Shown piece after piece: positions 18,028 to 26,266 of a stretch of 32,000 nucleotides of DNA (position 1 is its first letter; every line of letters starts with the position of its first letter). This DNA is from Vibrio cholerae ATCC 14035 (GTDB taxonomy: Bacteria; Pseudomonadota; Gammaproteobacteria; Enterobacterales; Vibrionaceae). The notes beneath the pieces were generated by a model. It was not told the DNA's origin and searched no databases. It was given only the letters and a program-made list of their open reading frames with translations. The translations under genes and the position numbers were made by a program. The stretch spans positions 30,001 through 62,000 of the forward strand of contig NZ_JHXR01000018.1 in the NCBI RefSeq assembly GCF_000621645.1. Reading direction: 5' to 3'.

Positions 18028-18134
18028 ATAAAAAACGCCCCAGTCAAATGGTGACTGGGGCGGCTGAATCAGCCTAATCCAATAACGTGAAACAAAAGGT
18101 CTGAAAGATAGAACATCTTACCTCTGTACCCTAC
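18028..18134 (-). ncRNA. spf: Spot 42 sRNA
   Basis: Minus strand reads GTAGGGTACAGAGGTAAGATGTTCTATCTTTCAGACCTTTTGTTTCACGTTATTGGATTAGGCTGATTCAGCCGCCCCAGTCACCATTTGACTGGGGCGTTTTTTATTGGGCG. The first 41 nt are identical to E. coli Spot 42 as I recall it, and the terminator hairpin plus TTTTTTATTGGGCG tail also match. Location downstream of polA matches E. coli. Confidence 0.95.
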
Positions 18135-18248
18135 GCGAGCTAATGTACAACAATTGGTCAGAATTGAAAATATTTTTTGTAGTTTTTTTTCATTAAATTT
18201 TAGTTAAACAACATAACTGTCTGAGCTAGGTAAACTTTTTTTAGTGAT

Positions 18249-21121: not shown

Positions 21122-21506
21122 TTATCCAAACGTAAGTAAATGAGCCTAGGATGCCACGACTAATGCTTGGATTCCATGTTGTTACCGTTTTTGGCTCATT
21201 CAGGGGATATCCGACCCACTTATCCAACCCTACATTCTGTGGATAACTCTGTTTATAGATTTATTTATGTCGATTTAAAACCGATAAATTTACTGCATGA
21301 TTAATTTTTAAGTTAATGTTTTTAAACAATAAAAAAAAGGATCGACTGAAAATAAAATGATCTTTTGCGGATCGTAAATTGTGGAAAAGACACTCGCTGC
21401 CCTTTTGCTCACTCTGCTTACGTGATGGATTGGCCAGTGGATGAGTGCAGTGAAACTTCATACTTGTCCACTCATTGCTGGGATAATATTAAGCTTCAGT
21501 GGATAA
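21122..21506. promoter_or_regulatory. DnaA-box cluster A with an AT-rich tract and GATC sites (polA upstream region)
   Basis: Matches to TTATCCACA: 21122 TTATCCAAA (8/9), 21220 TTATCCAAC (7/9), 21238 TGTGGATAA (9/9, reverse), 21380 TGTGGAAAA (8/9, reverse), 21436 AGTGGATGA (7/9, reverse), 21464 TTGTCCACT (7/9), 21478 CTGGGATAA (7/9, reverse), 21498 AGTGGATAA (8/9, reverse). GATC sites at 21340, 21359 and 21370. Positions 21250-21360 are very AT-rich. Confidence 0.55.
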
Positions 21507-21537: not shown

Positions 21538-21758
21538 AAAAGAAAAAGCGACACCCGAAGATGTCGCCTAGCAAACGAGGTCAAAGCCAATTTTTTGATT
21601 CGCTTTACCAAAAAGCTAAAAATTACACTGGAAGCAATGTGAGCAATGTCGTGTCAAAAAGAACCTGCTCAAGTTCGGCCGTTTCGCTACCGCATATCGA
21701 TGACTCGATAAAGGGTGACTTAACGTCCTGGTGAACCTTCACTTGTTCCCTAAGACGT
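21538..21758 (-). ncRNA. ryhB: RyhB sRNA (long Vibrio form, about 215-220 nt)
   Basis: Minus strand 21653-21622 reads CACGACATTGCTCACATTGCTTCCAGTGTAAT. Of this, 27 nt are identical to the E. coli RyhB core (CACGACAUUGCUCACAUUGCUUCCAGU). Terminator: GCGACA-tcttcggg-TGTCGC plus TTTTTCTTTTT (21567-21537). Promoter: TTGACT (21791-21786), N16, TATTAT (21769-21764). It lies next to a yhhY-like GNAT gene as in E. coli. Ends are accurate to about 5 nt. Confidence 0.88.
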
Positions 21759-23577: not shown

Positions 23578-24345
23578 ATGATTGATACCCATGCCCACGT
23601 TTATGCCAGTGAATTTGACCATGACCGCGATGAGGTGATCGCTCGCGCTAGACAAGTCGGTATTGAAAAAATCTTGATGCCTAATATTGACCTCAATTCC
23701 ATTGCGCCCATGTTGGCAACAGAAAAAGCCTACCCAGATCTTTGCCATTCGATGATGGGACTCCACCCTTGCTATGTGGATGCCAATGTAAAACAGACTT
23801 TAGCGACCATTTATGAGTGGTTTTCTCGCCACACTTTTATTGCCGTGGGCGAAATCGGTATCGACCTATATTGGGATAAGACTTTTAAAGCCGAACAAGA
23901 AATGGCGTTTTTAACCCAACTCAACTGGGCAAAAGAGCTGGATTTGCCCGTGGTCATTCACACCCGAGATTCGCTCAACGAGACATTAGCATTACTCAAG
24001 CAAGCGCAAGATGGTCGCTTACGCGGTGTTTTTCACTGCTTTGGCGGCAGTGTCGACGAGGCAAAAGCGATCAATGATCTTGGTTTTCATCTCGGCATTG
24101 GCGGAGTCAGTACTTTTAAAAATAGCGGCATGGATCAAGTGATCCCGCAACTCGATCTCAACTACGTGATTTTAGAAACGGACTGTCCCTATTTAGCCCC
24201 CGTCCCCCACCGTGGAAAACGTAATGAACCTATGTTAACCCATCTCATCAGTGAGAAAGTTGCACAGCTTCGTTCACTCCCTCTCGGCGAGGTTATCAAA
24301 ATTACCAACAACAATTCTAAGGCATTGTTTGGACTGGATAAATGA
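23578..24345 (+). CDS. TatD-family metal-dependent hydrolase/DNase
   Basis: 255 aa. MIDTHAHV (HxH motif), EIGIDLYW, VVIHTRD, HCFGG and LETDCPYL are the canonical TatD/YcfH family motifs. Confidence 0.9.
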   Translation: MIDTHAHVYASEFDHDRDEVIARARQVGIEKILMPNIDLNSIAPMLATEKAYPDLCHSMMGLHPCYVDANVKQTLATIYEWFSRHTFIAVGEIGIDLYWDKTFKAEQEMAFLTQLNWAKELDLPVVIHTRDSLNETLALLKQAQDGRLRGVFHCFGGSVDEAKAINDLGFHLGIGGVSTFKNSGMDQVIPQLDLNYVILETDCPYLAPVPHRGKRNEPMLTHLISEKVAQLRSLPLGEVIKITNNNSKALFGLDK

Positions 24346-24436
24346 CAGTTTTATTAATTTAATTTCATAGCATTTTATTGAACCAAGATCACTTTCATTT
24401 CCTATGCAGCAAATGTAATATTCGTAACAATTTTTC

Positions 24437-24577
24437 ATGGTTAACTTATATATTATGCTCAATTGTACTCACACGAATCATTTGCAACGTAAACGGCGCA
24501 CACTGTGGCAAAAGCTGATTGGTATTAAAGAAGTCTACATCTGCAGAGAGTGCGGACATATCATCAAGATCAAATAG
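24437..24577 (+). CDS. Candidate small Cys/His protein (46 aa, or 40 aa from ATG 24455); hypothetical
   Basis: Own translation: MVNLYIMLNCTHTNHLQRKRRTLWQKLIGIKEVYICRECGHIIKIK. It has C-x-H-x2-H ... CxxCxH spacing and a basic middle segment. GC rises relative to the AT-rich flank. There is no convincing SD for either ATG and no clean terminator. Confidence 0.25.
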   Translation: MVNLYIMLNCTHTNHLQRKRRTLWQKLIGIKEVYICRECGHIIKIK

Positions 24578-24762
24578 TGGCTGCTTTGCTGTGAGAGCAT
24601 AGTGGCCTTATTAGCCTCTCTTTTGCACTAAGCTCATCGTCAATCAAGCTTCGATAAGTGAGCGAATGACTTGCCCGTGCAGGTCATTCTGGGTTTGTGC
24701 CTTTCCCCCTTCCTGTGACTTCCCACGAAAGACTCCACTCAAACGTTCAATTGCGCTGCAGT

Positions 24763-25025
24763 GATCCGATTTTAGATCGCACTCGGGATCTCGTTGCGCA
24801 AATCTACCTGTGGATAACTCTGTGATAAATTTCTTTATTCACTGTCATCAAACCGCCTATTTCAAGGCTTTATTACAATTCATCGATTGGGGATACTTTC
24901 AAAATTACCCACAGCAAAATCAGGATCATCGCTACATATTGTGGATCGAAAATCACAAAACCACTTTATCAACGCAATTCACAGGATTACCCACAGGTGC
25001 TGTCATTTTAATCACAAGTGGATAA
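24763..25025. promoter_or_regulatory. DnaA-box cluster B preceded by three 12-bp-phased GATC sites (upstream of glpE)
   Basis: GATC sites at 24763, 24775 and 24787 (exact 12-bp spacing), then 24924 and 24944. DnaA boxes: 24809 TGTGGATAA (9/9, reverse), 24905 TTACCCACA (8/9), 24940 TGTGGATCG (7/9, reverse), 24966 TTATCAACG (7/9), 24987 TTACCCACA (8/9), 25017 AGTGGATAA (8/9, reverse). Confidence 0.55.
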
Positions 25026-25105
25026 CCCTACTCTTGTCCAGTACTTGTCTAAACTTGAATAGGTTACAATTAGCCCGATTCGGCATGCCAAATGAGAGCA
25101 AACCT

Positions 25106-25426
25106 ATGGACCATTTTTTACACATCGACGTTAATGCAGCACAAGCCATGATGGAGCAGAAACAGGCTCATTTAGTCGATATTCGCGACCCACAATCTTT
25201 TCAACTCGCTCATGCTAAAAACGCTTACCACCTGACAAACCAGTCTATGGTGCAATTCATGGAACAAGCTGAGTTTGATCAGCCGGTTTTAGTCATGTGT
25301 TATCACGGCATAAGTAGCCAAGGCGCAGCCCAATATCTGGTTAACCAAGGATTTGAAGAGGTGTATAGTGTCGATGGCGGCTTTGAAGCCTGGCATCGTG
25401 CCAATCTCCCCATCGAAGCGAGTTAA
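25106..25426 (+). CDS. glpE: Thiosulfate sulfurtransferase (rhodanese) GlpE
   Basis: 106 aa from ATG 25106: [32 protein letters not shown].... It has the rhodanese active-site loop CYHGISS, and glpG follows it. The track ORF (179 aa from 24887) is an upstream extension across the DnaA-box array. Confidence 0.9.
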
Positions 25427-25432
25427 GGACTA

Positions 25433-26266
25433 ATGCATTTACTGACCACTTTTAACAATCCGCGTGCGGCACAAGCTTTTATCGATTACATGGCCGCCCA
25501 CCACATTGAAATTCAGATGATGCCGGATGCAGGTGGTCAGTTCACTCTTTGGGTAATCCAAGATCAACACATCGAAACCGCACAAGCTGAACTCGCGCTG
25601 TTTTTAGAGAACCCTTATGCGGAAAAATACCAAGCCGCCTCATGGGAAGTCGCTGATCAAAAGCGCCCCCAATTTCATTACGCATCGCCCAATTTACTCA
25701 GTCTGATTAAAGCCAAAGCTGGAGTGTTTACGCTGTTTATTATGGCGCTATGCATCATCATCTTTACTCTGCAAACGTTTGGTGCGGGAGATGAGGTGTT
25801 TAATGCATTACATTTTCCCGCTCTTGCTGGCCAGCAATGGCAAATTTGGCGCTGGGTTAGTCATGCTTTACTGCACTTTTCCGTCATGCATATTGCCTTT
25901 AACTTACTCTGGTGGTGGCAATTTGGGGGCGATCTTGAACAGCGCCTTGGCAGTGTCAGACTGATTAAGCTGTTTGTGGTGTCCGCGATTATCTCTGGAG
26001 CTGGTCAATACTGGGTTGAAGGCGCGAATTTTGGAGGCCTATCCGGTGTTGTCTATGCTTTGGCTGGGTATCTGTGGATTCTTGGTCAGCGCGCCCCCCA
26101 ACTGGGTTTATCCATTCCAAGATCCTTGATGGGCTTTATGCTGATCTGGTTAGTGTTAGGTTATGTGCAGCCGTTTATGGCGATTGCCAATACCGCTCAT
26201 TTAGCTGGCTTAATCAGCGGTGTCGTACTGGCATGGTTCGACAGCCAGCGCGACCAGCAAGCTTAA
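25433..26266 (+). CDS. glpG: Rhomboid intramembrane serine protease GlpG
   Basis: 277 aa. N-terminus MHLLTTFNNPRAAQAFIDYM matches E. coli [20 protein letters not shown]. It also has HALLHFSVMHIAFNLLWWW, the catalytic GGLSGVVYAL serine and the AHLAG histidine. Confidence 0.92.
   Translation: MHLLTTFNNPRAAQAFIDYMAAHHIEIQMMPDAGGQFTLWVIQDQHIETAQAELALFLENPYAEKYQAASWEVADQKRPQFHYASPNLLSLIKAKAGVFTLFIMALCIIIFTLQTFGAGDEVFNALHFPALAGQQWQIWRWVSHALLHFSVMHIAFNLLWWWQFGGDLEQRLGSVRLIKLFVVSAIISGAGQYWVEGANFGGLSGVVYALAGYLWILGQRAPQLGLSIPRSLMGFMLIWLVLGYVQPFMAIANTAHLAGLISGVVLAWFDSQRDQQA

Follow-up and report, generated by a model that had tools for sequence, protein, structure and literature searches.

In a 32,000-nt stretch of the Vibrio cholerae ATCC 14035 genome (contig NZ_JHXR01000018.1, positions 30,001 to 62,000 of the forward strand; the whole stretch is hereafter called the window, and positions are counted from its first letter) we identified, directly upstream of the glpE-glpG operon, a dense array of boxes for the initiator protein DnaA, interspersed with the GATC sites of the Dam/SeqA system. 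Judged from its sequence, the region from 24763 to 25071 is a cis-acting, non-coding DNA element (~310 bp, single-copy) and not a gene. Its boxes keep a rigid layout across Vibrio, the open reading frames (ORFs) that cover it are not credible, it matches no Rfam family, it has neither an unwinding element nor a switch in GC skew, and it lies ~99 kb from oriC1, the origin of chromosome 1; on these grounds, its reading as a functional locus of DnaA binding, distinct from an origin, appears well supported. Beyond this, we put at roughly one half (~0.5) the probability that it is a non-origin site of DnaA assembly, coupled to Dam/SeqA, which would act as an origin-proximal sink or inactivator of DnaA and would also control the transcription of glpEG.

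Box anatomy and its conservation across Vibrio

Scanned with the DnaA-box consensus TTATCCACA, the element yields four boxes with at most one mismatch, at 24809 (reverse strand, perfect), 24905 and 24987 (forward strand, both TTACCCACA) and 25017 (reverse strand, TTATCCACT), exactly as listed in a preliminary description of this DNA. They are packed in 217 bp (24809-25025), a density that 1 of 300 simulated sequences equalled (first-order Markov model of the window), and they form part of an excess of such boxes over the whole 32 kb (20 versus 6.5 expected; none of 100 shuffles got to 20). Weaker sites (7/9 matches) outnumber the two reported before, as five were found (24835, 24888, 24940, 24966 and 25008), three of which (24888, 24940 and 24966) are kept across species. 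The GATC motif occurs five times in 185 bp (24763, 24775, 24787, 24924 and 24944), which reproduces the earlier count against a slightly higher expectation (0.94, from the window's own GATC density, versus ~0.7), and the first three of these sites are indeed spaced by exactly 12 bp. The box at 24940 (TGTGGATCG) does embed a Dam site, as had been remarked, and the GATC in question (24944) is found in 75/75 species. The right limit of the element was placed at ~25071, past position 25025 with which the preliminary description had closed it. Within the array (Table 1), the left arm (boxes A and A') and the right arm (D' and D) constitute an inverted repeat (I1/I2) in which A' mirrors D', and the 16-mer CTGTGGATAACTCTGT at box A is identical to the flanks of Escherichia coli R4 and datA box 2.

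Table 1. Parts of the element and genes of the downstream operon, in window coordinates
Feature	Position	Strand	Description
GATC cluster left of box A	24763-24790		GATCs at 24763, 24775 and 24787
Box A, perfect DnaA box (forward strand reads TGTGGATAA)	24809-24817	-	Left anchor, R1-like in position and orientation; 0-1 mismatch in 75/75 species
Box A', weak box-like 9-mer TGTGATAAA	24821-24829	-	3 bp inside box A, same orientation; 1-4 mismatches
Box a, weak, TGGGGATAC read as NTATCCCCA	24888-24896	-	17 bp before box B; 1-2 mismatches in 75/75 species
Box B, TTACCCACA (genus consensus TTACACACA)	24905-24913	+	R2-like
Conserved block ATCAGGATCATCGCTACATATTGTGGATCG	24918-24948	-	Contains GATC 24924 and box C
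Box C, read as NGATCCACA	24940-24948	-	GATC 24944 inside; 1-2 mismatches in 65/75 species
Right arm, three tandem boxes (x2, D', D)	24966-24995	+	R4-like anchor
Box x2, TTATCAACG	start 24966	+	Right arm
Box D', CAATTCACA	start 24975	+	Right arm
Box D, TTACCCACA in the window	start 24987	+	Right arm; TTATCCACA in 59/75 species
Box E, TTATCCACT on the reverse strand	25017-25025	-	21 bp past box D and facing it; one mismatch in 62/75 species
Promoter-like conserved block, GTACTTGT ... TTGAATAGGTTACAAT	25036-25071	+	TACAAT at 25065-25070
glpE (VC0100), rhodanese	25106-25426	+	ORF and Pfam; N16961 annotation
glpG (VC0099), rhomboid	25433-26266	+	ORF and Pfam; N16961 annotation

The loci of 80 Vibrio species were gathered via GlpG and an alignment of 75 species was built; an additional sample of 34 metagenome loci was found with a pattern that encoded the architecture only, and some flank statistics were taken over 105 sequences. 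The preliminary description had allowed its proposal to fall if the boxes were not conserved among Vibrio species, and eight box-like 9-mers (A, a, B, C, x2, D', D and E) were found to retain their position, order, orientation and spacing in the 75 species; A' represents a ninth site, weaker and less conserved, in which TGTG is invariant and the remaining bases vary. The distances A-a (79 bp), C-D (47 bp) and D-E (30 bp) are the same in 75/75 species, B-C (35 bp) in 74/75, A-B (96 bp) in 71/75 and A-D (178 bp) in 70/75, so that none of the inter-box distances is invariant in fewer than 93% of species, while the neighbouring spacers are free to vary in length. From A to E the array measures exactly 216 bp in 68/75 species, and the offsets from the glpE ATG (-297 reverse, -119 forward and -89 reverse) match those of the window in nearly all loci. 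Mean pairwise identity in the element (0.70) equals that of the glpE coding sequence (0.70) and is higher than that of glpG (0.66), as compared to 0.43-0.46 for third codon positions and 0.32-0.39 for flanking spacers. Within the element the box columns are the best conserved (0.91 versus 0.71 for non-box columns), and box A and/or box D is a perfect TTATCCACA in 71/75 species. In 33 of the 34 metagenome loci the total length is identical, and all those long enough to show neighbours have the order rpoH, element, glpE, glpG. Two loci (L104, QGCX01002382.1; L110, BCQL01001894.1) bear the element beside a GlpG only 51-55% identical to that of V. cholerae, an identity below that of any of the 80 Vibrio species, and may come from more distant Vibrionaceae; L104 is also the sole copy in which the matched pattern is one base shorter. 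A search with RpoH aimed at other Vibrionaceae genera returned Vibrio only.

Six to seven GATC positions are conserved in the element: those at 24775 (70/75 species), 24787 (61/75), 24924 (74/75) and 24944 (75/75; 20 bp from the preceding one), that at 25010 (44 species), and further two that belong to the rpoH terminator, in whose 3' arm the site aligned near 24763 falls in most Vibrio. The 100 bp upstream of box A hold on average 3.8 GATCs (105 sequences). The 12-bp phasing, true as it is for the window, is not conserved, since V. metoecus and most other Vibrio keep their GATCs at different spacing.

The element is neither a protein gene nor an RNA. The 71-codon ORF VC0101, which is annotated in V. 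cholerae N16961 and corresponds to 24810-25025 of the window, is open in 7/75 species and interrupted by stops in 68/75, shows flat conservation by codon position (0.785/0.780/0.774) and has no Pfam match, in agreement with the earlier dismissal of the ORFs drawn over this region. Likewise, no known small RNA accounts for it, as had been stated: the search against Rfam gave no match even at E-values up to 10, and in the consensus fold from RNAalifold (-9.7 to -12.8 kcal/mol over 275 nt) nothing pairs apart from the inverted DnaA boxes. The notion that the conservation stems from a small RNA or from a small protein (VC0101, 24810-25025), instead of from DNA-binding sites, may invoke the N16961 annotation and the related frame that is open in a few other species; set against the missing codon periodicity, the absence of Pfam and Rfam matches, a fold made of inverted boxes only and the fact that box columns are those conserved best, it appears close to refuted and receives next to no weight from us. 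We therefore consider that the annotation of VC0101 and its counterparts should become that of a regulatory DNA feature. Transposon insertions in VC0101 were scored neutral in rich medium by transposon-insertion sequencing (Tn-seq), which excludes essentiality only.

The glpE and glpG genes follow the element in 75/75 genomes and in all sufficiently long metagenome loci. In most Vibrio the genes upstream are ftsE, ftsX and rpoH, and the element starts directly after the rpoH terminator (a stem of GCCGAGATC, four bases, GATCTCGGC and a T run, with two conserved GATCs, one per arm); the ancestral context is rpoH terminator, element, glpE. The 'tatD-glpE spacer' of the preliminary description applies to the cholerae clade (V. 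cholerae, V. mimicus, V. metoecus and V. chanodichtyis), in which ftsE-ftsX-rpoH is replaced by hemB and a TatD-family gene, as a comparison of 23578-25106 with the loci of the other species shows; the breakpoint falls within the rpoH terminator and coincides exactly with the left border of the conserved element. Downstream, the distance from box E to a TACAAT hexamer is 48 bp in 64/75 species and that from TACAAT to the glpE ATG ranges from 40 to 96 bp across species (in the window, TACAAT at 25065-25070 lies 36-41 nt ahead of the ATG). As this box E-TACAAT distance is fixed and the conserved block (25028-25071, pairwise identity 0.65) reaches TACAAT, a likely -10 of glpE, the element would take in the probable glpE promoter; a consensus scan of the V. 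cholerae sequence returned no canonical -35/-10 pair and no terminator.

According to a Tn-seq study, the origin of chromosome 1 lies in the intergenic region at coordinate 1, and with VC0101 at 99187-99402 in N16961 (glpE, VC0100, at 98786-99106) the element is ~99 kb from oriC1, close to the ~100 kb that had been estimated. In V. rumoiensis a single contig carries both oriC1 (~44.3 kb) and the element (~92.1 kb), the latter 48 kb away from the origin and on its mioC/dnaA side. Several complete chromosomes have the locus at 15-50 kb from the point where their record begins, a position that is origin-proximal only if that point is near dnaA/oriC.

Likeness to oriC and to non-origin DnaA-box clusters

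The element was compared with E. coli oriC and, located via MioC, with the oriC1 of Aliivibrio, V. rumoiensis, V. ordalii and another Vibrio, V. cholerae's own oriC1 not being among them. All five true origins have R1 (reverse), R2 (forward, +106) and R4 (forward, +179/180), together with an unwinding element of 23-25% GC with phased GATCs; a reverse R3 is present at +140/141 in four of the five, and V. rumoiensis has overlapping forward and reverse 7/9 sites instead. The order of orientations in the element (-,-,+,-,+) is that of R1, R5M, R2, R3 and R4 in an E. coli-type oriC, with a strong reverse box on the left and a strong forward box on the right that span 178 bp (R1-R4: 179-180 bp). Moreover, B-C (35 bp) parallels R2-R3, which measures 34-35 bp in the oriC of E. 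coli and of three Vibrionaceae, the weak box a precedes the R2-like B by 17 bp much as a reverse box precedes R2 by 18 bp in Aliivibrio, a weak box sits 3 bp inside the right anchor as it does upstream of R4, and the region is GATC-rich, with weak boxes that have internal GATCs and a GATC density near box A (mean 3.8 per 100 bp) close to that of true origins (4-6). In contrast, A-B measures 96 bp and not the 106 bp of R1-R2, C-D 47 bp and not 39 bp (in 71-75 of the 75 species), a box E is added, and the locus lies between rpoH (or tatD) and glpE, whereas true oriC1 lies between mioC and mnmG (Aliivibrio, Vibrio). The element also has no AT-rich 13-mer unwinding element, which bears out the preliminary description: the 60 bp left of box A have a GC content of 0.50 in the window and 0.39 on average (105 sequences) versus 0.23-0.25 in four Vibrionaceae oriC1, and the lowest-GC 26-bp stretch averages 0.27 versus 0.08-0.12 in true origins. 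A switch of GC skew was sought over all 32 kb and none was found, the skew being negative throughout. A profile of the 75 species run with nhmmer against E. coli oriC, datA, DARS1, DARS2 and four Vibrionaceae oriC1 gave single-box matches only, and blastn searches of 5,426 E. coli genomes and of the PLSDB plasmids with the element gave box-sized chance matches or none, from which it follows that the element is not a recent copy of oriC, datA, DARS1 or DARS2. By these comparisons, we regard it as origin-like in design, but not as an origin or as something recently copied from one.

Three non-coding loci (datA, DARS1 and DARS2) govern the DnaA cycle of E. coli; of these, datA and DARS2 need integration host factor (IHF). 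The element resembles datA in being a non-origin cluster of DnaA boxes in an origin-proximal location, and in its left arm, which on the reverse strand reads weak box-GAG-perfect box (A'-CTC-A on the forward strand), as does the box 7-GAG-box 2 pair of datA; the 16-mer ACAGAGTTATCCACAG is common to this pair, to the flank of R4 and to the left arm. Furthermore, both sit just downstream of a unit transcribed towards them, which is rpoH in the case of the element and glyVXY in that of datA (PMC10950094). They differ in that the essential datA boxes 7, 2 and 3 share one orientation and flank an IHF site, an arrangement that was not found in the element with its inverted arms, in the number of GATCs (one in datA, six to seven conserved in the element) and in the lack of sequence homology. 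As for DARS1 and DARS2, on the reverse strand the succession of E, D and D' corresponds to their boxes I (forward), II (reverse) and III (reverse) with the same 3-bp II-III gap, but the I-II gap is 5 bp there and 21 bp in the element (75/75 species), so the DARS core geometry is absent. No IHF or Fis module was detected: over the alignment, the IHF consensus WATCAANNNNTTR (at most one mismatch) gave no site common to at least 15 species, and the Fis consensus gave only weak, non-conserved matches in 18-20 species. Membership in the datA or DARS family is hence not supported by the sequence comparison, though part of their grammar is shared.

The nearest precedent for the element is oriCII of Pseudomonas, an origin-like DnaA-box cluster at gidA, conserved across Pseudomonadaceae and near the true origin, whose boxes in P. 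aeruginosa control the p1 promoter of gidAB-parAB (PMC13438810). Both are second origin-like clusters near the true origin that lie on the promoter of an adjacent operon; they differ in host family, neighbour genes and box layout, and oriCII replicates when cloned; the Vibrio element is devoid of an unwinding region. In Bacillus subtilis, intergenic DnaA-box clusters outside oriC are stably bound by DnaA (PMC2533591). Unlike the element, these clusters are looser and not known for an oriC-like geometry fixed to the base pair or for Dam sites, the latter because Bacillus has no Dam/SeqA. When near the origin, B. subtilis clusters are thought to restrain initiation by titration. With regard to the replication system of chromosome 2, the core of the RctB iterons (TGATCA) is absent from the element as read, and chromatin immunoprecipitation on arrays (ChIP-chip) of RctB had revealed a single chromosome-1 site, the enhancer later named crtS; datA and DARS are mentioned in the Vibrio papers only by way of analogy with RctB sites.

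A proposed DnaA-assembly locus and its alternatives

We propose that DnaA, which we infer to bind the element together with SeqA, would form on it a defined multi-protomer complex resembling the one on the DnaA-oligomerisation region of oriC, with no unwinding element adjacent. The strong inverted boxes A and D, 178 bp apart and each with a weaker box 3 bp inward, would anchor this complex, ATP-DnaA would next occupy the weaker sites a, B, C, x2 and D', and box E would place DnaA ~56 bp upstream of the presumed glpE transcription start. Approximately eight to ten DnaA molecules might thus be kept from oriC1, as a complex unable to open DNA would simply hold them there, and hydrolysis of DnaA-bound ATP may additionally be stimulated (as by datA in E. 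coli), or the effect may be titration, as is thought for the B. subtilis clusters. Lying 50-100 kb from oriC1, the element should be duplicated and hemimethylated soon after initiation, whereupon the conserved GATC pairs (12-22 bp and 20 bp apart, with one GATC in box C) could recruit SeqA and reset the complex once per cycle after passage of the fork. The same occupancy would set glpEG transcription, which may in turn feed back on the complex. The terminator GATCs may functionally be part of this DnaA/Dam element; as a side observation, the rpoH terminator (L005-L080, ~60-110 bp upstream of box A, aligned to 24740-24770) is conserved in sequence in ~60 Vibrio species and has a T6 tail, and terminator stems commonly drift by compensatory changes.

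What argues for a single defined DnaA oligomer, as at oriC, is the combination of invariant spacing, inverted anchors with inward weak boxes, and weak sites of the ATP-DnaA type, a layout that independent binding sites would not require. As there is no unwinding element, such a complex would be unproductive, and the simplest consequence would be sequestration of DnaA near the origin and possibly its inactivation; the sign of the effect on initiation is presumed to be negative. The fixed link to the glpE promoter makes glpEG transcription very probably an output of the element. Several points weigh against the assembly locus as an origin-proximal sink: both binding and phenotype are predicted from sequence; no conserved IHF consensus was detected in the element, while datA and DARS2 require IHF; simple titration would not by itself need spacing exact to the base pair; and a purely transcriptional role accounts equally well for the retention of the element beside glpE after the cholerae-clade rearrangement and for the fixed box E-TACAAT distance. 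The neutrality of the VC0101 transposon insertions also counts against it, weakly, because datA and DARS deletions are viable in E. coli too.

Of the readings put forward in the preliminary description (datA or DARS analogue, SeqA-sequestered DnaA site, DnaA control of glpEG), control of glpEG has gained from the 48-bp distance of box E to TACAAT, and the counterparts of the E. coli loci have lost by the deviating DARS core geometry and the missing conserved IHF site. The most serious competitor of the sink is accordingly a narrower version of the former, in which the element is an elaborate promoter-control region of glpEG and nothing else, where DnaA with Dam/SeqA regulates in step with the replication cycle and there is no feedback on initiation; we hold it to be possible, if rather less probable than the sink. 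DnaA regulates the dnaA, nrdAB and polA promoters in E. coli, and the position of the element directly upstream of glpE in 75/75 genomes and in all informative metagenome loci, its persistence there when the cholerae clade lost the linkage to rpoH, and the conserved block (identity 0.65) with TACAAT at constant distance from box E would all be expected, with the oriCII boxes that regulate gidAB-parAB p1 as a precedent (PMC13438810). Yet eight exactly spaced boxes in 220 bp, an inverted repeat and six to seven GATCs exceed what most DnaA-regulated promoters have, boxes A to C are as far as 130-270 bp ahead of the presumed start, the consensus scan found no canonical promoter, and a rhodanese/rhomboid operon is not known to be tied to the replication cycle.

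Far less probable is a DARS-type reactivating sequence, which would strip ADP from DnaA, regenerate ATP-DnaA and promote initiation. The shared order and orientation of E, D and D' with DARS boxes I, II and III, down to the 3-bp II-III gap, is offset by the head-to-head gap of 21 bp (75/75 species) instead of 5 bp, which brings these boxes onto a different helical face, and by the lack of conserved IHF sites and of Fis-like matches other than weak, non-conserved ones; the origin-proximal location would also better fit a negative than a positive regulator. Still more improbable, in keeping with the preliminary description, is a dormant or auxiliary origin that fires under certain conditions. 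Here the oriC-like order, orientation and total span of the boxes, the origin-like GATC density beside box A, the rather AT-rich flanks with GATCs in some species and the replication of a plasmid-cloned oriCII (PMC13438810) are countered by flanks (0.50/0.39 versus 0.23-0.25 GC) and lowest 26-bp stretches (0.27 versus 0.08-0.12) that reveal no unwinding element, by negative GC skew over the entire window, by a left flank that is the rpoH terminator in most species, and by the altered A-B (96 versus 106 bp) and C-D (47 versus 39 bp) distances.

V. cholerae is the main model for bacteria with two chromosomes, and work on its replication has centred on RctB, crtS and Dam/SeqA. In the searchable literature we found no DnaA-controlling locus equivalent to datA or DARS for this species, and the open-access full texts searched (Vibrio with DnaA, datA/DARS, glpE, rpoH or VC0101) contained no description of the element, a search confined to open access, so that an earlier account may exist elsewhere. 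We tentatively suggest, at a likelihood clearly below even, that the element is the long-missing regulator of DnaA activity on chromosome 1: a decoy derived from or mimicking an origin, free of IHF and of unwinding, which, under Dam/SeqA control, would take DnaA out of action once in each cycle, by inactivation or sequestration, and help to time initiation on that chromosome. As the firing of chromosome 2 is coupled to the replication of chromosome 1 through crtS, a decoy-origin regulator would, if real, indirectly affect chromosome 2 as well. It would also tell whether oriC-like DnaA assemblies have been reused as regulators devoid of an unwinding element, and whether such complexes function in the absence of a recognisable IHF site. 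The candidate is a 310-bp, single-copy and origin-proximal element with eight boxes and Dam sites fixed genus-wide to the base pair, and its small size makes it amenable to deletion, relocation and box-wise mutation.

Surroundings of the element and a second box cluster

The window belongs to V. cholerae chromosome 1: its gene order is that of N16961 from VC0108 to VC0098 (polA, Spot 42, RyhB, hemB, the TatD-family gene VC0103, glpE, glpG and a chemotaxis receptor), and the glpE-glpG operon occupies 25106-26266, directly downstream of the element; the GlpG of the window is found as an identical protein in thousands of assemblies. Between tatD and the element lies a 417-bp filler (24346-24762) that is peculiar to the cholerae clade; it diverges by 34% in V. 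mimicus and is for the most part missing from V. metoecus. A stretch of 28% GC (24300-24480) is found in this region, and the filler ORF VC0102 (46 codons, 24437-24577) has only sub-threshold, zinc-ribbon-like matches in Pfam.

A second cluster of DnaA boxes was observed upstream of polA, in the gap between polA and RyhB (21122-21506), with four boxes of at most one mismatch at 21122 (forward), 21238 (reverse, perfect), 21380 (reverse) and 21498 (reverse), and it explains the remainder of the excess of boxes in the window. Its perfect box shares the extended 16-mer CTGTGGATAACTCTGT with box A, and beyond it comes a very AT-rich stretch that holds three GATCs (~21340-21375), this cluster looking more AT-rich than the glpE element. 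The small RNAs Spot 42 (18029-18144) and RyhB (21593-21658), both on the reverse strand, score above the Rfam gathering thresholds and are ordinary known features.

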